Shown here: one piece after another, positions 1-9,365 of the stretch
Position numbering within the stretch: the stretch's first letter is position 1
How the letters are laid out: each line of letters opens with the position of its first letter
Source: a virus
Taxonomy: Duplodnaviria > Heunggongvirae > Uroviricota > Caudoviricetes
Virus record (IMG/VR): IMGVR_UViG_2660238128_000002
Length of the DNA: 14,285 nucleotides
Strand: one strand, 5' to 3'
Notes under the pieces: generated by a model
Databases searched by the model: none
What the model was told of the DNA's origin: nothing
What the model saw: only the letters and a program-made list of their open reading frames with translations
Made by a program: the position numbers and the translations under genes

Positions 1-1083
1 ATGTCGTCTAATAATCGACTCCATTATCTTGATGGTATTCGTGGCTGGGCCGCAACTATTGTTGTCTTCGGGCACACCATGGGGGGCGTGATTGCAATTG
101 ACGCACCTAATTTTGTAAATCATCAATGGATGAGCTTTTTTACAAATGCTCATCTTGCTGTTTTGGTATTTTTTGTTTTATCAGGCTACGTCCTGAGCGT
201 TAGCCAAATCTACTCATCAAAACGTAATACTGCGGTATCCACCGTTGCAAGATTATTCAGATTGGCTCTTCCGATTCTGTTCGTAAGCCTTGTCGCATAT
301 ATCATGATGAGGTTAAACCTATTTTTCAATGTTCAAGCCGCTACTAATGACATATCGAAATCGTGGTTAGGGACATTTTTCAGGTTTGAGCCGTCACTAC
401 CTGGTGTATTTTCCTTTTCATTTTTCGATGTATTTTTCGCTTATGATACTCCGACATCATACAACTCTTCATTATGGACCATGCCTATAGAAATGGCTGG
501 GTCAATTCTAATTTATTCATACATAGCTATATTCAGAACTGAAAAATTCAACTGGATAATTTCTTCCATTTTAATAGTTTATTTCTATTTTTATAGCCCA
601 TTCATGTTCTGCTTTATGGTTGGGTATGTTCTGGCTGAACTGAAAAAAATTAACAACCTATACCTGAGTGGTAGAAATGAAATACCGTTGATATTTATTT
701 TCTTTGCCATGATCTATCTGGATACATACCATAGGCCGGTTGATGAGATTATTCAGGCGCTTGAGGCGGTAGTATTTGTTGTTGTAATATCTTACAGCAA
801 AACTTTATCATCGCTGTTCTCATCAAGAGCATCAAGATTTATGGGCAGGATTTCGTTTTCTCTATATCTAGTTCAGATACTGGTTATTTGCTCATGGTCT
901 TCGTACATGAAGATTTTACTATCAAACTCTGGTATTAATATAAATATTGCAGCCTCAATAAACCTCATATCATCCATGGCTTTGTGCATATTAACAGCAA
1001 GAGCCATGACTCCTATTGATGAATTTAGTGTTAAACACTCCAAAACCATTGCTTTTAAATTATTAAATTTATGCTCTAGGTAA
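1..1083 (+). CDS. Integral-membrane acyltransferase, acyltransferase-3 family (O-antigen O-acetyltransferase-like; lysogenic-conversion candidate)
   Basis: 360-aa ORF. N-terminal motif LDGIRGWAA...VVFGH matches the conserved N-terminal Arg/His region of acyltransferase-3 (Oac/OafA-type) enzymes. Protein is very hydrophobic, consistent with a multi-pass membrane protein. Gene is AT-rich relative to the tail genes and convergent to the tail fiber gene. Family assignment from memory of the motif, not a search. Confidence 0.7.
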   Translation: MSSNNRLHYLDGIRGWAATIVVFGHTMGGVIAIDAPNFVNHQWMSFFTNAHLAVLVFFVLSGYVLSVSQIYSSKRNTAVSTVARLFRLALPILFVSLVAYIMMRLNLFFNVQAATNDISKSWLGTFFRFEPSLPGVFSFSFFDVFFAYDTPTSYNSSLWTMPIEMAGSILIYSYIAIFRTEKFNWIISSILIVYFYFYSPFMFCFMVGYVLAELKKINNLYLSGRNEIPLIFIFFAMIYLDTYHRPVDEIIQALEAVVFVVVISYSKTLSSLFSSRASRFMGRISFSLYLVQILVICSWSSYMKILLSNSGININIAASINLISSMALCILTARAMTPIDEFSVKHSKTIAFKLLNLCSR

Positions 1084-1266
1084 CCAAGTCGTCAAAATGC
1101 ACTTTAAGCCCCATAAGGGGCTTTCCATTCGCTCAGGTCTATCGAATCCACCATCCTGGCATACTAAAATGTTAATCGATATGCCATCAATCACTTCTTT
1201 CTCTTCATCCATTTCTGCCACGTAAATTGCGGCAATCGTATGGACGCTTTTCCTCAATTGGTTCAT
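1069..1266 (-). CDS. Hypothetical small protein (65 aa), doubtful
   Basis: ORF from the six-frame track. It overlaps the 3' end of the acyltransferase gene and the putative terminator hairpin. No recognisable motif. May be spurious or a gene remnant. Confidence 0.15.
   Translation of the reverse strand: MNQLRKSVHTIAAIYVAEMDEEKEVIDGISINILVCQDGGFDRPERMESPLWGLKCILTTWLPRA
1107..1126 (+). terminator. Possible weak intrinsic terminator after the acyltransferase gene
   Basis: Hairpin AGCCCC-ATAA-GGGGCT (6-bp GC-rich stem) about 25 nt after the stop codon, followed by a short, imperfect T-tract (TTTCCATT). Confidence 0.3.
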
Positions 1267-1573
1267 TATTTTTCCGATATGTCACACCCCATATTTAGAT
1301 TTCAACGTTATTAGATCACTCGCAAACTGTTCCTTCAGCATTGGATATTTAGCTTGCTAATGCTGCATGATTGCTTCCATCAGTTAAAGATGCAGAACTA
1401 AAAGCTAACGTAAGAAATGAAACATTCTCTTGATATGCTTTACTTAAGCTTTCCAGCTCTTTTTTGTATAGATAAGCATTTATTGTTGATTCTGAAATAA
1501 TTTTATACTCCAGCTACTGACAGAATTTACTATTTGATGAATTGTGTTTATCTCCTAATGAGTGCTTAACATT

Positions 1574-1687
1574 TTAATTCATTACAATTTCCTTATATTC
1601 AAGGTATTTTTCAAGATCTTGCTCACAACGGAATATTGATACTAATTGACTTTCATCATTAGTTGAAAGTTGGATGTATAGATTCAT
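1574..1687 (-). CDS. Small ORF (37 aa) immediately downstream of the tail fiber gene; possible remnant or mini tail-fiber chaperone
   Basis: ATG at 1687 lies 10 nt after the tail fiber stop and is preceded by AAGGA at 6-nt spacing. Translation: MNLYIQLSTNDESQLVSIFRCEQDLEKYLEYKEIVMN. Not in the ORF track (below its length cutoff). Sits where a tail fiber assembly gene would be expected. Confidence 0.3.
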   Translation of the reverse strand: MNLYIQLSTNDESQLVSIFRCEQDLEKYLEYKEIVMN

Positions 1688-1696
1688 CAATAGTCC

Positions 1697-2851
1697 TTAA
1701 ATAGTATACCCACTTACACCAACAGTTAAGCTAGATACTGATGATGTTGTCCAAGTGAATGTATAATAAATTGTTTGAGGGTTCTGGATTAGAAGCTCAT
1801 AGTAAAAATCGACGCCAGTAGATCTACTTAAACCAGCATATGCCTGGAAATACCCTACATCCTGGGTATCAGAAGCAATTGAAGCAGCTGCATAACCATC
1901 ACCTTCCCCTGTGTTACAAAACACATAACCAGTACAGGTTGCTGCGTTTTTCGGGATCGCGTTTGTAAGAGAAATTGGAGTATACCCACCTGGGTTGCTA
2001 CTGGTTGACAGTACATCAACTCGCTGGGTAGCGAACTTTCTCCCTCTTTGGTACCCAATTTTTAACAGCGCCCCAGATGTTGTTCCCCACACCGATACCA
2101 AAGCGCTCGCCGTATATCCTGCTGGCATGTTTGCACCACCATATACCGTGGGAGCAATAATAGAAGTGACGTCCTGAGCAAGTAATGCCGAGGTATCTGT
2201 CGTCGGGTTATAAATCAGGTAAATTGCAACCCAACCACTGGCTGGCGCACTACCAGTATCCATGCCACCCGCCCCAGTCGTGGTGAGATTGATGGTTTTG
2301 TTGACCGAGCTTAAACGGTACTGCTTACCAGATAATGACTCACCAACAATGACTTGATCAGCAGTGAACGTTGCTGATGCCGACGCTATTGCCACGCTCA
2401 TTTTCTGGTTAACAGCCTGACCAACCACGCCGGTGAATGATTCTCGCATCTTGAGGTAATCACTTAGCGGCGACCACCCAGCTGAAGAAGTATTAGGGTC
2501 GTTTGTGTTGTTGTTGATAGTGCTGATATAAATCGTTGCGCCGTCATCACTGATGAGAACAGCTCCAAGAGGATACCCTCCAACCGCCGTTGAAAAATCT
2601 GAGTCAAAAGCATTAAGAGCGCCTGCGCTAGACCATCTGCAAAGGGAAGACAACTCATACAAGATTTGATTCATGTCCTGCCCTTTGGGAGGAAGGCCCC
2701 CGGCAGATTTCAAAATCATTGTTATTGGTGGGAATCCTAAATCGTAGGATGCTGTATTATCTCCAGCTGGAGTTGTCGGCAGAAGATCCTCTCTTTGACC
2801 ATTTACTCCAAAAGGTTTTGGTTGTTTTTTGGGTGAGTCAGAGCGATTCAT
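1697..2851 (-). CDS. Phage tail fiber protein
   Basis: 384-aa ORF, last gene of the baseplate operon, directly after the gp48-like gene (3-nt gap). Gly/Ser/Thr/Asn-rich with repetitive beta-rich character (e.g. TINLTTTGAGG, YTFTWTTSSVSSLTVGVSGYTI), typical of fiber proteins. Position matches Mu gene S. Confidence 0.75.
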   Translation of the reverse strand: MNRSDSPKKQPKPFGVNGQREDLLPTTPAGDNTASYDLGFPPITMILKSAGGLPPKGQDMNQILYELSSLCRWSSAGALNAFDSDFSTAVGGYPLGAVLISDDGATIYISTINNNTNDPNTSSAGWSPLSDYLKMRESFTGVVGQAVNQKMSVAIASASATFTADQVIVGESLSGKQYRLSSVNKTINLTTTGAGGMDTGSAPASGWVAIYLIYNPTTDTSALLAQDVTSIIAPTVYGGANMPAGYTASALVSVWGTTSGALLKIGYQRGRKFATQRVDVLSTSSNPGGYTPISLTNAIPKNAATCTGYVFCNTGEGDGYAAASIASDTQDVGYFQAYAGLSRSTGVDFYYELLIQNPQTIYYTFTWTTSSVSSLTVGVSGYTI

Positions 2852-2853
2852 AC

Positions 2854-3492
2854 TTAATTCCTATAAAATGTGCCATCATTAAACGGGTAGGCGTCAGATG
2901 AAAAACCGAAATAAGGACTAATAATTTTTCGAATATTTACCTGAACACCACTAGGAACTGGCATTACTTCATAATTTGTGAGAATAGATTCCTCGTATGG
3001 TGCAAGTTCAAACTCGAATGTTATTCCAATGGTCATATCTCGATAATTCACACAGTATGCCCTTCCTCTTTGAAAAAATAATATCTTTAAAAACTTGTTG
3101 ATTTCTGGAATCGTAGCAATACTTATGTTCGTAAACGCTTTGCAAAATATGAGTGTTCTGTAAGCCTCGTCACTCAATCTAACATTTGTTGTCTCCTGTG
3201 CTCCTCCAAAAAAAGGAGAGTTGTTGAACGGAGCGGGGTAATTTGGTTCTGCATTATCAGCTTCACTGAATCCGAAGGAATTGGTCTCTATAGGTGAGTT
3301 AATATAGCGACTTATCCCTACTATTTTCCCCCACATATCCAGGCCGAATGTATCACAGGTAGTCAAATCCCATACTTTTTTAATAAACTCATCAGTGAAA
3401 TCATCAAGGCTAATTGCCTGATTAAAGGTATCAATGATGGATAGTAATTTTTTGCTTGCAGAGTACTGGGTAAGAATTGTGTCCTCCCACAT
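2854..3492 (-). CDS. Baseplate/tail protein, Mu gp48-position (DUF2612-like)
   Basis: 212-aa ORF between the baseplate J-like gene and the tail fiber gene. Size and position match Mu gp48. Family call by synteny and recollection only. Confidence 0.6.
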   Translation of the reverse strand: MWEDTILTQYSASKKLLSIIDTFNQAISLDDFTDEFIKKVWDLTTCDTFGLDMWGKIVGISRYINSPIETNSFGFSEADNAEPNYPAPFNNSPFFGGAQETTNVRLSDEAYRTLIFCKAFTNISIATIPEINKFLKILFFQRGRAYCVNYRDMTIGITFEFELAPYEESILTNYEVMPVPSGVQVNIRKIISPYFGFSSDAYPFNDGTFYRN

Positions 3493-3502
3493 ACATTTCC
3501 CC

Positions 3503-4732
3503 CTACGATAATGTAACAGTGATATCTGATTCCTGAATGGTTGGAACCTGGTCTATGCCCATAGTCACAGCCGGTCCGTATAGTGAACCATCGAGAGAAA
3601 CTTCAAGAGACAAAATTCCAACTGTATCAGGAGATATTGAAATAACAGGGGCATAGTATTTACCAGCATTTATCGTCGAACCAATTCGTGCCTTTCCAAT
3701 ACCCTCATATCCTCCATTGAACACAGTGACAATCATTTCCTTTACTTGTTTAGTAATATCACTTGGGGGATTTAGTGAAGCATCGACATTTACCTTAAAG
3801 TAAACCCGCGTAGGTGATGCCTTTTGCCATTGCATTACATAAGATGGATATGGCGGCATGTAATTAACGTTATCGTAAACAGTGAACGTTGTATTACCAT
3901 TCATATTGGCCCCGGGGTTATAAGTATTGAATATTGACTCAGCAACATCCGTATCAGCCCCGCCATAAACACAAATATAAACAGAATGCGCAAGAATCGG
4001 GAAATTCGTTGTTCCTTTATTTACTGTTTCTGCAGTTCTGTTTGACCATACGTAAGCATCAAGCACACCATCAGTCGCAAGTAACGCGGCTAATGTAGAT
4101 GCGTCCTGATTTCGACTGTTTCTGGCAACTGATTGTCTCCGGCGAGTTTCAAAGGCGATCCGTGATTCAACATCAACACCAACGACTCCAGGGCTAGTAT
4201 TATTTACAGCATCCCACCCGGAAACGGCTCGATAAATCTGGTTCAGTGAACCTGCGGCACACGGAATCGGCCCGGTTGTTGTGTTGACAAACTGCACATC
4301 AACAGAGCCTGATGAGGGTATTACAGCATTATCAATTGACTGATATATATACCCGCTCGTATCCACAGCGGTACTCCCTGCTGGTATTGTTGTTCCAACC
4401 TGACCAATGCATGTTGCTGTAACAACTGTCCCCTGAGCAGCGATCCGCTCCATAAAGTAAATCCGACCAATCCCGTCCTGGAATCTGCCGGTTGAAAAGT
4501 CAGGGTTAATTTGATTAAACAAACAAAGAAGCTTGTCGTATTCCTGAGCGATAATTTCAGTGTCAGACTGGGCGATCTGCCCTTGCGGTGAACTCAGTGA
4601 CTGACTTGCGCCACCGCCAAGGGCCGTTGACATGTCTGTAAGTCTTCCCGCCAATACATCTGCTATATCGGGGACTGAAAGACCGTTTTCAGTGATGGTT
4701 ACATCAGGAACAGCCGTATTTAATGTCGTCAT
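3503..4732 (-). CDS. Baseplate J-like wedge protein (Mu gp47 / P2 gpJ-like)
   Basis: 409-aa ORF. Its stop overlaps the start of the upstream 119-aa gene by 4 nt. Size and position are typical of baseplate J family proteins in Mu-like tail modules. Confidence 0.65.
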   Translation of the reverse strand: MTTLNTAVPDVTITENGLSVPDIADVLAGRLTDMSTALGGGASQSLSSPQGQIAQSDTEIIAQEYDKLLCLFNQINPDFSTGRFQDGIGRIYFMERIAAQGTVVTATCIGQVGTTIPAGSTAVDTSGYIYQSIDNAVIPSSGSVDVQFVNTTTGPIPCAAGSLNQIYRAVSGWDAVNNTSPGVVGVDVESRIAFETRRRQSVARNSRNQDASTLAALLATDGVLDAYVWSNRTAETVNKGTTNFPILAHSVYICVYGGADTDVAESIFNTYNPGANMNGNTTFTVYDNVNYMPPYPSYVMQWQKASPTRVYFKVNVDASLNPPSDITKQVKEMIVTVFNGGYEGIGKARIGSTINAGKYYAPVISISPDTVGILSLEVSLDGSLYGPAVTMGIDQVPTIQESDITVTLS

Positions 4733-5088
4733 AAGGTGGCCTGTGCAATATTACCATTGATATCTGTAACGCGGATTGTCCCGCGAGTTGTGCGTGTATT
4801 CTTGTCAAAGAAAACTGACGCCAGAGCATCCTCAACAACGGGTAATTTGAGTGCTTCAGCCTGCATTTTCTGAGCAATAAAACCAGGAGATGGTCGCCTG
4901 CCAAGAACTTCTGCCTTCCATGGGATCCCAAGTGTATTGTCGTAATAACACTCTCCTGAAAACACCAGGCATGCACTGGCGACATCCTGAGCAACAGAAT
5001 ATGATTCTTCTGCGATCGCCAGATTGCCATTTCCGTCAAGCGTCAAGTCCCACGTAGAAGTGTCCAGCTGCATAGTTCTGTATGTCAT
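4729..5088 (-). CDS. Small baseplate assembly protein (Mu gp46 / gpW-like position)
   Basis: 119-aa ORF translationally coupled (4-nt overlaps) to both neighbours. It is the small protein that conventionally precedes baseplate J. Confidence 0.55.
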   Translation of the reverse strand: MTYRTMQLDTSTWDLTLDGNGNLAIAEESYSVAQDVASACLVFSGECYYDNTLGIPWKAEVLGRRPSPGFIAQKMQAEALKLPVVEDALASVFFDKNTRTTRGTIRVTDINGNIAQATL

Positions 5089-5777
5089 GTCGGTTTATCC
5101 GTTGCATTGGAATTTATTGTTGACCCACCACTTTGTATTCCTGAAACAGAATGTTTGTGATTGTTATAGTTGTCCCTTAAATTTTTAACAGTAGATGACT
5201 GTGAGTCTGCGTTATCCTGAATATCGCCACTAACTTTAAGTAAAGGCGTATTCATGTTGACTCCATCAGGAGCATCAATATTTAACGATGAGCATTTGAT
5301 ATTTAGTGGGTTAGGCGTGGTTATATTTATTGCACCGTCAGCGAATTCAATGAATTGAGTAGGTGAAATGTTTAATACCCCACCAAGATAAATCGCATCC
5401 GATTTACTGTGTCGTCTTTTGCTTCCAGGTACTGATTCTTTACGATTTTTTCTTACCAGTGATGTGTCTTTGTCGCATACCGCAATCAGACCAATATCAC
5501 CTGCCACAGGGTCCATAATTACAGCGCTGTTTCCTCTCTGCAACCGCCATACGGGAAGATCATATAAAACCGAGTTGGAAATCATTTTTCCTGTACGGTC
5601 TGTTCTGGTTAGTAAAGGAAGAACATCAACAACTAAATCTGGTGCTTCCCCTCTGACTTCCTGAACTTTCGCTAACTCAATGAAGAAATATCCAGACATC
5701 AGCATCTCAAAAATATATTCCTGAGATTGAGCCTCACTTACCTGAGCAGGCGTTGGAGTAAATAGTTGCTTATCCAT
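5085..5777 (-). CDS. Baseplate spike / assembly protein V-like (Mu gp45 position)
   Basis: The ORF track gives 5085..5870 (261 aa), but its first ~31 codons overlap the upstream gene. The internal ATG at 5777 (MDKQLF...) gives an 8-nt ATGGATAA start/stop overlap typical of coupled phage genes. Start choice is uncertain (alternatives at 5846 and 5870). The C-terminal region is Gly/Ser/Asn-rich. Confidence 0.6.
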   Translation of the reverse strand: MDKQLFTPTPAQVSEAQSQEYIFEMLMSGYFFIELAKVQEVRGEAPDLVVDVLPLLTRTDRTGKMISNSVLYDLPVWRLQRGNSAVIMDPVAGDIGLIAVCDKDTSLVRKNRKESVPGSKRRHSKSDAIYLGGVLNISPTQFIEFADGAINITTPNPLNIKCSSLNIDAPDGVNMNTPLLKVSGDIQDNADSQSSTVKNLRDNYNNHKHSVSGIQSGGSTINSNATDKPT

Positions 5778-6946
5778 TATTCTGTTGCGCCTCTGCTCTT
5801 TGTTCCGCTGTTCTGGCGGCAATACATATTGAGTGCCATGAACCATTTGGCATCCATGATGATAATTCATGCCGAACGGAGGTTAACTTATACCTTCCGC
5901 TTGCATGTGGTAGTTCTGTTTTGATATCCACATATCTTCCAATGCAAAGGAGAGATGAATATTGCGTCTGAAACATCAGCCCCCCATTTGAAAATACAGG
6001 ATATCCAACAAGTCCGTATTCTCTGGATATAAACGGAATTACATCATCTCTGTTTTTTTCTGAAGGCCAGAACTCTACTTTTGCAGGTGGCGTAGCTGAC
6101 ATTGCCAGTCCATAATCTGAACAGACTCTATAAAGTTGCTCAAAAACACTTCCTTCAAAATGCGGACTTCCTGATGTTGTCATCCCTTTTACATTATTAA
6201 ACACAGCTTCATAACCTGCACTTGCACAAATGGATGAGATGACATCTTCAACACTTTGCGCCCCCTGTGCTGTAAACGGACTTGCTGGCATGTTCTGCAA
6301 ATCAACATTAGAAGAAGCTGTTATCATCAGGCTGCTTTCAGGAGCAGAATTCATGTTTGCTATTGATGAAAGCATCGTGCCAGAGAAAACAAGAGAATCA
6401 TCGGCAAATACTTCAACATTTAGCTTCTGCCCTTCTCCAATAATACCATCAGCCTTCCCTGATATATCAGCAAGCCTTTCAATTCCTAACCCGTAAAGAG
6501 ATATATCAGCCTGAGCGCCTCCCCGACCGGTAACAAAGTTCAGGGATACTGTTGACTTAACATTTCTGATGGAGATTTTATTGTTCCCATTTTTATCAAA
6601 TGCTGATGATTCATTCGTGAAGTCAAACCGAAGACTGTGATTTTTATACAAGCTCGTTTTCCTCGATGTAGTACAGCAAGTAACGGCTACCCAAGCCTTC
6701 CCATTGCGGATCCGATTCCCCATCATTATCAATGAAAATAAGGTCTCCCTTAAATCCAAGGTAGGAATATCTTACCATCTTATTCCCATACAGACATGGA
6801 ACGCCCTGCATAATTGGGACTTCATTAACAGTTAAATCCATGTACATAAAACTCTGTCGCTGAACAAGTTTTATATTACATTGCTGACCAGACAGACTTA
6901 CCGAAATGGACTGAGATTTGCTGGGAAGAACAGATACTGTAATCAT
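5770..6946 (-). pseudogene. Baseplate hub-like gene (Mu gpP/gp44 position) split into two overlapping reading frames
   Basis: A 100-aa ORF (6644..6946) and a 329-aa ORF (5770..6759) overlap by 116 nt in different frames. The downstream frame is +1 relative to the upstream one and begins at a TTG. Together they would encode about 390 aa, the size expected for a gpP-like protein. Both frames look protein-like across the overlap. Interpreted as a frameshift mutation, sequencing error or unusual +1 recoding. Confidence 0.5.
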
Positions 6947-7758
6947 GTACTCGCCTTAACTATATTTTTTGCAATATCTGCCGCTTTTTTTGTTGCGCTG
7001 TTTGTGACTTCGAGTATTGGTTTGGATACCGTATCAAGAGCACTCTGGAATTCAGTCTTGATTGTGTCGGAGATTTTTCCAGTGATTTCGCCAACAGATG
7101 ACTTCAGTGATGACCATGATTTACTTAGCTCATCGACAGTAGATTCCCTGGCTCCGCCATTGGTTATTTGCGGATCAACTCCTACACCTCCCTGTGACTT
7201 ATTGTTATCCGTTGGCTTCTGTTCTGACTGAGATCCAGAGAGGATAACCTCCATTTGCTGAATGACCTCCTGAAAATCAAGATAAACCGTCAGAAGAGTC
7301 ACCCCTTTTTGAGAGTTAACTTCGTAATAGTGGTCAACAAGGTCGAAACTCTCCAGAGTTTCCTTTGGCGTTTCAATATCGTATGTTTTTGCAGAGGACA
7401 GCATCATTTTGATTGTGTTCAGCGTGCTGTTCTGGCTTGTGAATGTGAGATCGAAAATATTCGGGATGTTGCCGGAAAAACCAGTAAGACCATTTACGAT
7501 GATTGCGCATCTTACCCTGGCGGGTTCTTTAACTTTGTTGATGGACTGGTATTTCCCTTTCTCCACCGGAGCGTTTGTTATTTGCGCCCTGCCACTTGGC
7601 TGCACGGATGCCATACCACTGAACTCAAGAGCAACCTCGCCAGTTTCCCTGTCACGAATCACATACTGAGGATGCAGAACGCTGTCGATGATCGAAAGCG
7701 GAGAGCCACCACCGATAGCATTGAATATGTCTGCTGTGTTTAAATCGATTATGCCCAT
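6943..7758 (-). CDS. Tail/baseplate protein in the Mu gpN position (function unassigned)
   Basis: 271-aa ORF, first gene after the immI-like cassette. Good RBS (GGAGAG, then 3 nt, then ATG). Stop overlaps the next gene's start. Assignment by position only. Confidence 0.5.
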   Translation of the reverse strand: MGIIDLNTADIFNAIGGGSPLSIIDSVLHPQYVIRDRETGEVALEFSGMASVQPSGRAQITNAPVEKGKYQSINKVKEPARVRCAIIVNGLTGFSGNIPNIFDLTFTSQNSTLNTIKMMLSSAKTYDIETPKETLESFDLVDHYYEVNSQKGVTLLTVYLDFQEVIQQMEVILSGSQSEQKPTDNNKSQGGVGVDPQITNGGARESTVDELSKSWSSLKSSVGEITGKISDTIKTEFQSALDTVSKPILEVTNSATKKAADIAKNIVKAST

Positions 7759-7770
7759 CTACTCTCCATT

Positions 7771-7795
7771 AAACAAAAACCCAGCCGAAGCTGGG
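7771..7795 (-). terminator. Intrinsic terminator downstream of the Bro-N antirepressor gene
   Basis: On the minus strand: CCCAGC-TTCG-GCTGGG hairpin (6-bp GC-rich stem, tetraloop) followed immediately by TTTTTGTTT. Lies between the antirepressor stop (7815) and the next gene's start (7758). Confidence 0.6.
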
Positions 7796-7814
7796 TCGTT
7801 GCGTTGGTTATCTG

Positions 7815-8693
7815 TCAGTAGTTATGTACTGAAGGAGGTAATTCTTTATTCTTAAGTCTCATCCATGCGGAAAGATTCGTTGGTCCGTCTGGCTCATTGA
7901 TATCAACATCTCGTGTGTGATTGATTAAAACGTCTCTCGCTATATCGATAATACGGGAGAACTCATAACCGCAGTCATGACATCTGCCGGAATAGTTCGA
8001 TTGAATTTGTTTTAATGCCGGATACAGTTCGCGGAATAATGCCTGTGAACGGTTGGCATAATCCCATAACCATACAAGGCTGTTTGCTTCTTTTGCAGAA
8101 ATCTCGTTGGTTTTCTTCTCTTGTTTGCCGATGAACTCACCTTCAAGCACTACCCTGTGGATGTACTCTACGGCCAGCGGGATTTGTTCAATTGAAAGTT
8201 CATCAATGCTGTCAATACCAAAACGCTGATGAACCATATTGTATGCATCGTCATAGCGAAGTCCTTTCTTTCCTACCAGCATGTTTACTGCATCGCGTAG
8301 CGGTGTTCTTTCCTCAACAGTGGTTTTCTTTCCTTTTACATACTCGCCATGTTTGCGAATTGAAGGCAGAACTTCTGCTGTTACCCACTTGCGGAATTTG
8401 TGTGGGACTGAACCTTTATTGACTGCATCGCGGCAGCGCAGAACCAATGTATACATACCTGATTCGCTCACAATGCTTAGATTCTGCTCACCACCAAGGG
8501 TGTAACTTAAAGTTACTCCCTTTTCATCGTCATCAAGTGCAGTAAGCGCCTTGCGTGAGTTAGTCAAAGCTAAAGCATCACAAACATCTTTAGCTACAAA
8601 CCACGGCTCGCCGCACTTGTTAATGACGCGAATTTCACTGTCGCCAAATTTGAAGATGGTGAAATCGTTTTGTGCCTTTGCTATACTTTTCAT
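7815..8693 (-). CDS. Bro-N domain antirepressor (Ant-like)
   Basis: 292-aa ORF. The N-terminus carries the Bro-N signature ([10 protein letters not shown]...[16 protein letters not shown]...[19 protein letters not shown]). The C-terminal half is a separate region of unassigned fold. It is the second gene of an operon headed by a small ribbon-helix-helix gene, as in P22 arc-ant. Confidence 0.75.
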
Positions 8694-8768
8694 GTCAATA
8701 TTTCCCGATCAGATTTGTTGATGTAGAAGCCTCGCCAGTTCCCGCTGTCGGGGCTTCGTTATTTTTAG
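8679..8768 (+). ncRNA. Candidate Sar-like cis-antisense small RNA covering the antirepressor ribosome-binding site
   Basis: Plus-strand extended -10 element TGcTATACT (8679-8687) inside the first codons of the antirepressor gene. About 40 nt further on the plus strand is a hairpin GAAGCCTCG...CGGGGCTTC (8726-8757, 9 bp including one G-U pair) followed by GTTATTTTT. The predicted ~75-nt transcript is antisense to the antirepressor RBS and the intercistronic region. The terminator is oriented for the plus strand only. Confidence 0.4.
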
Positions 8769-8926
8769 AGAGCATTCCGCATTTTCTCCCGGTACTTCAA
8801 CCACCAAGCAAGTCCCTGAACCAACACTGAGTTTTCTGACATCCCCTCTTCCTTGGCGATGCGTTTCACCTCCTCCTTAAAACGGTACGGATACCGAAGA
8901 GTTGTCTTCACTTCATTCTTTTCCAT
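8765..8926 (-). CDS. Arc-like ribbon-helix-helix transcriptional repressor (53 aa)
   Basis: ORF absent from the supplied track (below its cutoff). ATG at 8926 is preceded by GGAGTG with an in-frame stop immediately upstream. Translation: MEKNEVKTTLRYPYRFKEEVKRIAKEEGMSENSVLVQGLAWWLKYREKMRNAL. Shows the ribbon-helix-helix pattern (beta-strand TTLRYP, helix A, turn, helix B). Same length as P22 Arc and directly upstream of the antirepressor. Confidence 0.65.
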   Translation of the reverse strand: MEKNEVKTTLRYPYRFKEEVKRIAKEEGMSENSVLVQGLAWWLKYREKMRNAL

Positions 8927-9027
8927 TGATCACTCCTTTTACGTAATGGCATTATGCCTTGAAAGCAATATGCTATCATTGAATATAAATAGCAATATGC
9001 CATCATTGTTTTTTTTGAGGTGATGTT
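8927..9027. promoter_or_regulatory. Divergent promoter/operator region between the Arc-like and Mnt-like genes
   Basis: 100-bp AT-rich intergenic region. Two 18-bp direct repeats, AGCAATATGCTATCATTG (8964-8981) and AGCAATATGCCATCATTG (8991-9008), 17/18 identical, 27 bp apart. Perfect palindrome GGCAT-T-ATGCC at 8948-8958. Plus-strand -35-like TTGAAA (8959-8964) with a TATAAA -10-like element (8984-8989). Minus-strand CATAAT -10-like element within the palindrome. Confidence 0.5.
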
Positions 9028-9348
9028 ATGGCTGAAAAGCAGGTTAAAGATTACGAAAAGTTTGTTGTGCGTTTCCCTGACGGGATGAGGGACGCGATTG
9101 CGGAGAGAGCCAAACGAAACGGGCGCTCTATGAACTCAGAGATTGTGCAGATACTGGAAGATGCCTTGAATGCAGAAAATACTCTTGGGGAAATAGCAGA
9201 CAAAATCAACAGCGTCTCGGTTCCGTTAAATGTTGATGCGCTAGTTCAACTTCAAGCCCAAGTGATCGCCATGCAAAAAGAAATACAGGAAAAGTTCAGA
9301 GAGCAGAACGAAAAGTTGAGAGAACTGCTAAACAAAAAACCCACCTGA
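9028..9348 (+). CDS. Mnt-like (Arc/Mnt family) ribbon-helix-helix repressor with C-terminal coiled coil
   Basis: 106-aa ORF with RBS GAGG. N-terminal FVVRFPDGMRDAIAERAKRNGRSMNSEIVQILEDAL closely resembles the Mnt/Arc DNA-binding motif as I recall it (...NGRSMNSE...DAL). The C-terminal half is heptad-like and charged (oligomerisation). Divergently transcribed from the Arc-like/antirepressor operon. Confidence 0.75.
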   Translation: MAEKQVKDYEKFVVRFPDGMRDAIAERAKRNGRSMNSEIVQILEDALNAENTLGEIADKINSVSVPLNVDALVQLQAQVIAMQKEIQEKFREQNEKLRELLNKKPT

Positions 9349-9365
9349 CGGTGGGTTTTCATTTT
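9332..9365. terminator. Bidirectional intrinsic terminator
   Basis: Hairpin AACCCACC-TGAC-GGTGGGTT (8-bp stem), flanked by an A-run upstream and a T-run downstream, so it is followed by U-tracts on either strand. The Mnt-like stop codon TGA lies in the loop. The hairpin is about 50 nt downstream of the tape measure stop on the minus strand. Confidence 0.7.

Follow-up and report, generated by a model that had tools for sequence, protein, structure and literature searches.

A predicted acyltransferase moron facing a BcepMu-type tail fibre gene at the attR end of a lambda-site prophage, with remains of a chaperone gene in the spacer between them

How does a temperate phage come to carry a membrane acyltransferase gene that runs head-on towards its own receptor-binding fibre gene, and what has become of the chaperone gene that one would look for behind such a fibre? 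These questions are raised by the IMG/VR virus record IMGVR_UViG_2660238128_000002, a Caudoviricetes sequence of 14,285 nucleotides, the whole of which is called the window here. At its left end, a gene for an acyltransferase-3 (AT3) protein at 1-1083 (+) and a tail fibre gene at 1697-2851 (-) stand tail-to-tail, as a sequence-only reading of this DNA had described, and are 613 bp apart. We think it quite probable that the standalone AT3 gene is an autonomously expressed moron close to the phage attachment (att) site and facing the receptor-binding fibre gene, that its product acylates a surface glycan, for which the O-antigen is the best candidate, and that the spacer is a chaperone gene in decay. 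Prophage AT3 genes alter surface antigens, and this bears on serotyping, on vaccine targets and on host range in phage therapy.

The AT3 gene is intact and encodes 360 aa. Its start is placed at position 1 of the window because an in-frame stop lies upstream of this ATG and there is no alternative start codon. The sequence-only reading had taken the gene for an AT-rich one encoding a membrane acyltransferase with an N-terminal motif of the Oac/OafA type, and had proposed to compare the protein with acyltransferase-3 models. Indeed, residues 8-333 match Pfam PF01757 (Acyl_transf_3) over its full length (profile positions 2-325 of 326) with 80.9 bits at a cutoff of 31 (E 1.2e-22), and PHROG 3333, annotated as 'O-acetyltransferase', matches as well (E 1.3e-23). 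The hallmarks of the AT3 domain are R-X10-H in the first transmembrane helix (TMH1) and RXXR at TMH3 (PMC9833829). Both motifs are found in the protein, as R14-X10-H25 (numbering as in OafB) and R84-L-F-R87; an alignment with 42 homologues shows R84 and R87 without exception, and R14 and H25 conserved in at least 90%. The AlphaFold2 model built on this alignment (pLDDT 95, pTM 0.92) is all-helical, with 10-11 long helices and short ones in the loop between TMH3 and TMH4, and hydropathy peaks concur. As modelled, the protein is polytopic and has the AT3 fold with about ten transmembrane helices. Since no SGNH domain is found in the Pfam scan, unlike the case of the peptidoglycan O-acetyltransferase OatA, it can be called an AT3-only protein. 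There are 453 homologues, the closest of which come from Leminorella (70% identity), Duffyella (63%) and Enterobacter (53%). A tblastn search of 50,697 phage genomes gave one weak match, in Pantoea phage PA-1 (28% identity), and a structure search of BFVD was uninformative.

Where does such a gene sit in the phage genome? Positions 1-7032 of the window are 100% identical to the chromosome of Escherichia coli 720632, a strain from human stool in Pakistan, and the IMG/VR provirus UViG_2703718829_000008 corresponds to the window. On the chromosome of 720632 the order is bioA, ybhB, the lambda att core (TTAGTATAAAAAAGC), lambda P-arm sequence and then the AT3 gene, while the integrase is at the opposite end of the prophage. 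The AT3 gene is the terminal gene of the prophage at att-lambda, about 390 bp inside attR, and occupies the position of lambda's b region. As the window opens exactly at the AT3 ATG, both the promoter of the gene and attR fall outside it. In the closest sister prophage, that of FDAARGOS_1288, homology covers ybhB, the core and the P arm, and ends 186 bp 5' of the ATG. In this upstream region there is a match to a sigma-70 promoter, TTGACG-16-TATAAT, 33-60 bp before the ATG, which is the sole 11/12 match of that region. The AT3 cassette has a guanine-plus-cytosine (GC) content of 36.5% against 44.7% in the rest of the window, a comparison that had also been proposed earlier and comes out as expected for the AT-rich gene. 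Of 5,426 complete E. coli genomes only one has this cassette; many of them, by contrast, share the tail module from about 2594 onward at 93-96% identity, and megablast and blastn of positions 1-2600 or 1-3500 against phages gave no close relative. By its terminal place at att-lambda, its own predicted promoter, its AT-rich composition and its rarity beside a common tail module, the AT3 gene has the sequence marks of a moron, which is what had been claimed for it.

The fibre gene, on the other side of the spacer, is a mosaic. It encodes 384 aa with matches to tail-fibre PHROGs in its N-terminal part (E 4e-55) and in its C-terminal part (E 1e-44). The first 85 residues or so are shared with the sister prophages, whose nucleotide match starts only at about 2594, and aa 135-384 (1697-2449) form a fibre tip of the family of BcepMu gp52. 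By tblastn, fibres of Burkholderia, Yersinia, Pseudomonas and Ralstonia phages are 41-58% identical to this tip. On its upstream side the fibre gene has a DUF2612 gene, a baseplate-J gene and the remainder of a contractile-tail module, with intact open reading frames (ORFs) throughout from sheath to fibre.

What is then missing behind this fibre? In all five sister prophages examined, a tail fibre assembly gene (tfa) of 134-200 aa directly follows the fibre gene, so the earlier expectation of a chaperone gene was a reasonable one, and its absence here is real: the window holds no intact Tfa ORF (about 130-200 aa) directly past the fibre gene. The spacer, 1084-1696, had been described as about 600 bp of AT-rich and largely non-coding DNA. 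At 34.7% GC, against 44.7% elsewhere in the window, and with no intact gene in its 613 bp, it agrees with this description, but a tfa pseudogene lies inside it, which makes good the earlier guess that the chaperone gene had been lost. The evidence comes from a hidden Markov model (HMM) of the Tfa family, made from 12 Tfa proteins of the LR778141 type and run against 542 stop-to-stop six-frame segments of the whole 14.3-kb window. There was one significant match, at 1352-1513 (-) (E 1.1e-6, 23.9 bits, HMM positions 69-110). The other matches all had E > 2; among them is a colinear piece at 1285-1356 (-) on HMM positions 121-138. Together they outline a putative fossil of the C-terminal half of a Caudo_TAP-type Tfa at 1282-1513 (-), with frame A at 1513-1352 and frame B at 1350-1285, a frameshift near 1351, a TGA stop at 1284-1282 and no start codon. 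Compared with LR778141 Tfa by phmmer, the fossil scores 18 bits, while Pfam PF02413 itself gave no match at E <= 1.

If the fossil is followed upstream to the ATG at 1687, a whole tfa-like pseudogene of 134 codons appears at 1282-1687 (-), interrupted by a TAA at 1576-1574, a TAG at 1516-1514 and the one frameshift near 1351. In hhalign, residues 68-133 of the conceptual 134-residue product fall on columns 69-138 of 139 in the Tfa alignment (P 89%, E 2.3e-6), and the C-termini of the two are in register (…KYGV* and …QYPV*). Like Caudo_TAP (PF02413) Tfa proteins such as the 141-aa one of the LR778141 sister prophage, the pseudogene lies directly downstream of the fibre gene on the same strand, and its C-terminal 66 residues can be aligned with that Tfa at 30% identity. 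Unlike them, it has two stops and one frameshift, and its N-part resembles phrog_20339, not the Caudo_TAP N-domain. The N-part and the first segment of the C-part are in the same frame, and residue 68 falls on Tfa column 69, that is, at full Tfa spacing; this shared frame and spacing, with intact fusions of the same kind elsewhere, favour one ancestral gene of 134 codons. We therefore favour, on these sequence relations, the reading of 1687-1285 as a single tfa-like pseudogene with a phrog_20339-type N-domain and a Tfa-type C-domain. Two other origins could be proposed for the Tfa-like C-half: it could be left over from a resident tfa after the swap of the fibre tip, or it could have arrived with the AT3 cassette, which is equally AT-rich. 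On each of the three readings, the spacer holds a chaperone gene that has decayed. Across 3.5 kb, the window differs from strain 720632 and from UViG_2925914267_000005 at two positions only, 1096 and 1453. Two single-nucleotide polymorphisms (SNPs) across three independent assemblies mean that the pseudogene state is shared and that the cassette is recently clonal. What seemed to be a non-coding spacer would be a fossil by which the loss of a chaperone, in the wake of an exchange of fibre tips, can be dated.

The N-part of this pseudogene is still open as an ORF of 37 aa. With its ribosome-binding site it occupies 1574-1698 (-): AAGGA at 1698-1694, ATG at 1687 and the stop TAA at 1576-1574, which leaves 9 nt between the fibre stop and the ATG. 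The sequence-only reading had rightly remarked on a good ribosome-binding site just after the fibre gene; the ORF listing counts 38 aa because a TTG one codon upstream is taken as start. The ORF matches phrog_20339 with E 4.3e-4 over profile positions 2-34 of 62, and in hhalign its residues 1-30 align with 12 members of that family (P 93%, E 2.8e-7). At its N-terminus the conserved motif Y-[IV]-Q-[LF]-S...V-S-[IV]-F-x-C-x-Q-D is kept. However, the ORF stops at codon 38 and so loses two of the three invariant residues of the family, D39 and R41; a full-length phrog_20339 protein, of 49-78 aa with both residues, is not what this ORF encodes. It appears to be a diverged and truncated N-half of a small post-fibre protein of the phrog_20339 type. 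A search for homology to the N-termini of fibre assembly proteins had been suggested for it; its family phrog_20339 is not detectably homologous to Tfa N-domains. The idea that phrog_20339 is the Caudo_TAP N-domain was tried and is unsupported (hhalign P 0.2%).

What kind of protein is phrog_20339? The annotation of PHROG 20339 is 'unknown function'. To see its usual place, 23 distinct loci with a BcepMu-gp52-type tip and downstream sequence were examined, and in 20 of them the next gene after the tip is an ORF of 54-66 aa or a longer protein that starts with a phrog_20339 domain. The earlier expectation of a Tfa of 150-200 aa is thus well founded in the sisters, but the usual partner of this particular tip is a phrog_20339 protein of 49-78 aa. 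The motif of the family is YVQFSDxxExxIVSVFGxPQDPExYPxQGEVxxDDxRY. A profile search of 5.8 billion proteins yielded 103 cluster representatives, whose lengths run from 49 to 110 aa and, with a single exception, stay within 49-78 aa; those with names are all hypothetical or uncharacterised, and a Pfam domain is found only in one 110-aa member, a fusion with Phage_tail_APC. Joining of a phrog_20339-type N-domain to a C-part like Caudo_TAP or Phage_tail_APC is seen in intact form in a protein of 167 aa (locus L025, 4701-5204) and in that 110-aa protein (P0217, PF16778). In Ralstonia phage Hyacinthe, the phrog_20339 domain is fused to DUF4376 in a protein of 161 aa (locus L046, 2536-3021). These fusions hint at a modular role in fibre chaperoning, and strict synteny with one tip class, together with occasional fusions to tail assembly chaperones, makes a function of the family testable. 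Although matches to the family HMM at E 1e-16 to 1e-34 show strong conservation of the small post-fibre ORF, it is unannotated in the GenBank records of BcepMu (locus L007, about 3241-3432) and PE067 (locus L045, 2539-2721). The PE067 copy extends into the 3' end of the AT3 gene that converges on it.

Might the 37-aa ORF itself be a functional minimal chaperone or adaptor, so that the rest of the spacer is non-coding, its likeness to Tfa fortuitous or a relic, and no function lost? The good ribosome-binding site, with the same 9-10-nt spacing behind the fibre as in intact members of the family, and the N-terminal motif that is kept would agree with this, and so would the intact state of the fibre gene and of the entire tail module and the conservation of the sequence, with two SNPs, in three independent assemblies. 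Yet all of the 103 database members have 49-110 aa and none comes down to 37 aa, the ORF ends ahead of D39 and R41, and its match to the family profile is far weaker than that of other members (E 0.0067 against 1e-9 to 1e-35). We regard a working 37-aa protein as improbable.

It may also be asked whether the region is a decaying, non-inducible prophage remnant, in which the host keeps the AT3 gene while fibre and chaperone are being lost and no logic of phage and receptor is involved. The tfa is already a pseudogene, and in 720632 the tail cluster is split by an insertion sequence, IS600, at 7032, with other parts of the prophage rearranged or frameshifted. On the other hand, every tail gene of the window from sheath to fibre is an intact ORF, the provirus contig has 43 kb, and the chaperone gene alone is broken. 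A mere remnant is thus a rather unlikely explanation, though we would give it somewhat more room than a working 37-aa protein.

We come back to the probable moron and ask what its neighbourhood in relatives tells about its role. In FDAARGOS_1288 the same slot holds gtrA-gtrB-gtrC, annotated as GtrA and family-2 glycosyltransferase. Clusters of the gtrABC type glucosylate the O-antigen. The two prophages are of the same lineage (96.5% nucleotide identity over the tail genes) and are both at the att-lambda site beside ybhB, and in both the slot lies between attR and the fibre/tfa genes, with the cargo reading inward from attR and convergent to the fibre genes. They differ in that the cargo of FDAARGOS_1288 consists of three genes for glucosylation instead of one for acylation, and in that FDAARGOS_1288 has an intact Caudo_TAP tfa of 134 aa and another fibre tip. 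In the sister prophage of STEC299 the slot is filled by a hexapeptide-repeat acetyltransferase gene, convergent to tfa. Homologues of the AT3 protein are found in comparable places: that of Leminorella grimontii (70%) is at a prophage end, convergent to a Tail_spike_N/Peptidase_S74 tailspike, and that of Enterobacter asburiae (53%), likewise at a prophage end, has DinI on one side and a convergent Caudo_TAP tfa on the other, in a prophage of the DUF2612/baseplate-J kind that adjoins smpB. A different situation is met in Duffyella gerundensis, whose homologue (63%) stands by itself, flanked by DUF421 genes on one side and sbcB on the other, with dacD close by but no phage genes nearby (locus L012, 8001-10513) and about 1.4 kb of uncalled DNA on its 3' side; it may be a stranded moron of a lost prophage. 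The gene dacD also adjoins the sister prophage in E. coli KCJ3K291.

The best-known case for comparison is the oac gene of phage Sf6. There the layout is tailspike, terminator and oac in convergent orientation, followed by int/attP, and oac has its own promoter. Like Sf6 Oac, the protein of the window is AT3-only and of similar size (360 aa, 333 aa in Sf6), and its gene is convergent to a gene for a receptor-binding protein, near an att site and with its own predicted promoter. In layout, an AT3-only gene of a temperate phage beside a receptor-binding gene and att, it belongs with the phage Oac group. Unlike in Sf6, the spacer is 613 bp instead of 34 bp, the identity is 24% over 140 aa, and the phage has a contractile-tail baseplate with a fibre instead of a P22-like tailspike. 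The Sf6-like layout, and the presence of gtrABC or a hexapeptide acetyltransferase in the same slot, bear out the earlier claim of a lysogenic-conversion-type cassette. This kind of element is already known from Sf6 oac, BcepMu gp53 and gtr cassettes, and the AT3 gene of the window is a rare and divergent member of it.

How would such a cassette work? A lysogen would transcribe the AT3 gene from its own sigma-70 promoter. The AT3 protein of about ten helices would move an acyl group, probably acetyl, from cytoplasmic acyl-CoA through its pore by means of R14/H25 and R84/R87, and the group would be put on a surface polysaccharide at the periplasmic side, most probably on the O-antigen that is recognised by the phage's own fibre tip. 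Acylation would then alter the serotype and make it harder for this phage and its relatives to adsorb. The O-antigen as substrate, the serotype change and the superinfection block are proposed here from context. Meanwhile the chaperone gene would have been killed by two stops and a frameshift, leaving the 37-aa ORF as a still-open N-terminal fragment and 1513-1285 as the Tfa-like C-half.

Several points weigh against this picture. The identity to Sf6 Oac, 24% over 140 aa, comes with a profile match that is limited to the first 100 residues or so, and this direct comparison gives no close kinship to a characterised O-antigen acetyltransferase of the Oac type. No equivalog model of NCBIfam matches the AT3 protein (none matches the fibre either), and no solved relative came up in PDB sequence and Foldseek searches, in which HGSNAT appeared at noise level only. 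With an Oac match so distant, no equivalog and no solved relative, the acceptor is read from context, not from orthology. AT3-only proteins are also described as acting on enterobacterial common antigen (ECA), capsules, osmoregulated periplasmic glucans (OPG) and other targets (PMC9558356). As to the terminator, the spacer has a hairpin, AAGCCCC-ATAA-GGGGCTT, at 1106-1123, 23 nt past the AT3 stop, with a GC-rich stem of 7 bp. Folding of 1084-1135 (+) gives a minimum free energy of -13.5 kcal/mol (z -2.97), and none of 200 shuffled sequences is as stable. The consensus terminator scan passed over this hairpin, which has no strong T-run; for this reason it is only a weak candidate terminator for the convergent transcripts, and termination is uncertain. 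The tfa fossil, in turn, depends on matches of 24 bits and of score 40, significant for a small and defined search space; an intact close homologue of the conceptual 134-aa product was not found among the 5.8 billion proteins; and a single gene is suggested by frame and spacing only, the N-domains of phrog_20339 and Tfa proteins being not detectably homologous.

Could the AT3 protein acylate a glycan other than the O-antigen, such as ECA, capsule or colanic acid, the lipopolysaccharide core or OPG, so that the gain is host fitness or immune evasion instead of receptor masking? The PF01757 family is broad, the protein has no close match to a characterised O-antigen enzyme, the Duffyella homologue (63%) is chromosomal without adjoining phage genes, and the AT3 protein of BcepMu shows a faint MdoC-like match. 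Such an acceptor is hard to reconcile with AT3 genes being found repeatedly beside genes for receptor-binding proteins at prophage ends, and with gtrABC in the same slot, and the protein has no SGNH domain, unlike OatA. We consider another glycan unlikely, and keep the O-antigen as the most probable acceptor.

Is the meeting of this fibre tip with an AT3 gene a single accident? Among the 23 tip loci, an AT3 gene comes right after the small ORF in nine. It is convergent in eight of them (BcepMu gp53, PE067, vB_PL1, vB_E433, a Pseudomonas brassicacearum prophage, one IMG/VR provirus, the window and a second prophage of 720632) and co-directional in one, Yersinia YeP1. In addition, vB_PL1 carries a gene of the SGNH type, and in Ralstonia phage Hyacinthe the place of AT3 is taken by a GDSL/SGNH gene. 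From these nine of 23 loci, an enrichment of AT3 genes beside this tip class is no more than suggestive. The window follows the same order as BcepMu gp52/gp53, PE067, vB_PL1, vB_E433 and Yersinia YeP1, that is, a tip of the same family (41-58%), a phrog_20339 small ORF and an AT3 gene. It differs from loci of the BcepMu type in its AT3 protein (22-24% identity) and in its small ORF, which is intact with 54-66 aa in those loci and has 37 aa here, and those loci show no Tfa-like C-terminal remnant. The AT3 proteins of the window, of the second prophage and of BcepMu gp53, the three compared directly, are 22-24% identical to one another, while the tips are 41-74% identical. Inheritance of tip and AT3 as one cassette is ruled out by this difference, and the pairing must have been put together repeatedly instead of being handed down as a block. 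A single tip class found with very different AT3 genes across bacterial orders fits a tip that reads an acylatable glycan.

Strain 720632 is the only genome with this tip among the 5,426, and it carries the tip twice. The second copy belongs to an unrelated e14/Mu-like prophage near yfdC (NZ_CP025842.1, 4489616-4492409; locus L021, 3707-6400), where a tip with 74% protein identity is followed by an intact phrog_20339 ORF of 55 aa and a different convergent AT3 gene (22% identical); in the same set of genomes, no other than 720632 has this cassette either. A recent exchange between the two tips is ruled out by their nucleotide identity of 73%. It might be possible that a BcepMu-type tip, a phrog_20339 protein as a hitherto undescribed minimal chaperone or adaptor, and an AT3 gene make up a recurrent 'recognise-and-mask' module, reassembled in unrelated temperate phages of Burkholderia, Pseudomonas, Yersinia and E. 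coli and carried twice in 720632, where the 55-aa copy may complement the broken one in trans. We put this forward tentatively, as a possibility with the odds against it.

The rest of the spacer offers little else. An ORF of 65 aa at 1069-1266 (-), which overlaps the 3' end of the AT3 gene by 15 nt and contains the hairpin, has no match in Pfam or PHROG and among 1.84 billion representative proteins matches itself alone. As an orphan that overlaps the AT3 gene it was rejected as a real gene and is probably spurious, in line with the doubt already expressed about it. No known small RNA or riboswitch was found in an Rfam search of 900-1900 at E <= 1, and a repeat search of 1000-1800 gave short repeats at chance level, with no ends of insertion sequences and no att-like repeats.

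Farther into the window, the identity to 720632 ends at 7032, where IS600 breaks the prophage of that strain (locus L001, about 22032-23252). Lambda-like early genes follow beyond IS600 there; that copy is rearranged, and the tail cluster of the window is uninterrupted. Amid this tail-gene cluster are a gene for an Arc-family repressor at 9028-9348 (+) and a gene for a P22AR-type antirepressor at 7815-8693 (-). Thousands of E. coli genomes contain the block around them, 7775-9357, and Stx phages, Kapi1 and EC.P3 have segments that are 88-97% identical to it; the block looks like a mobile insert of the immI kind.

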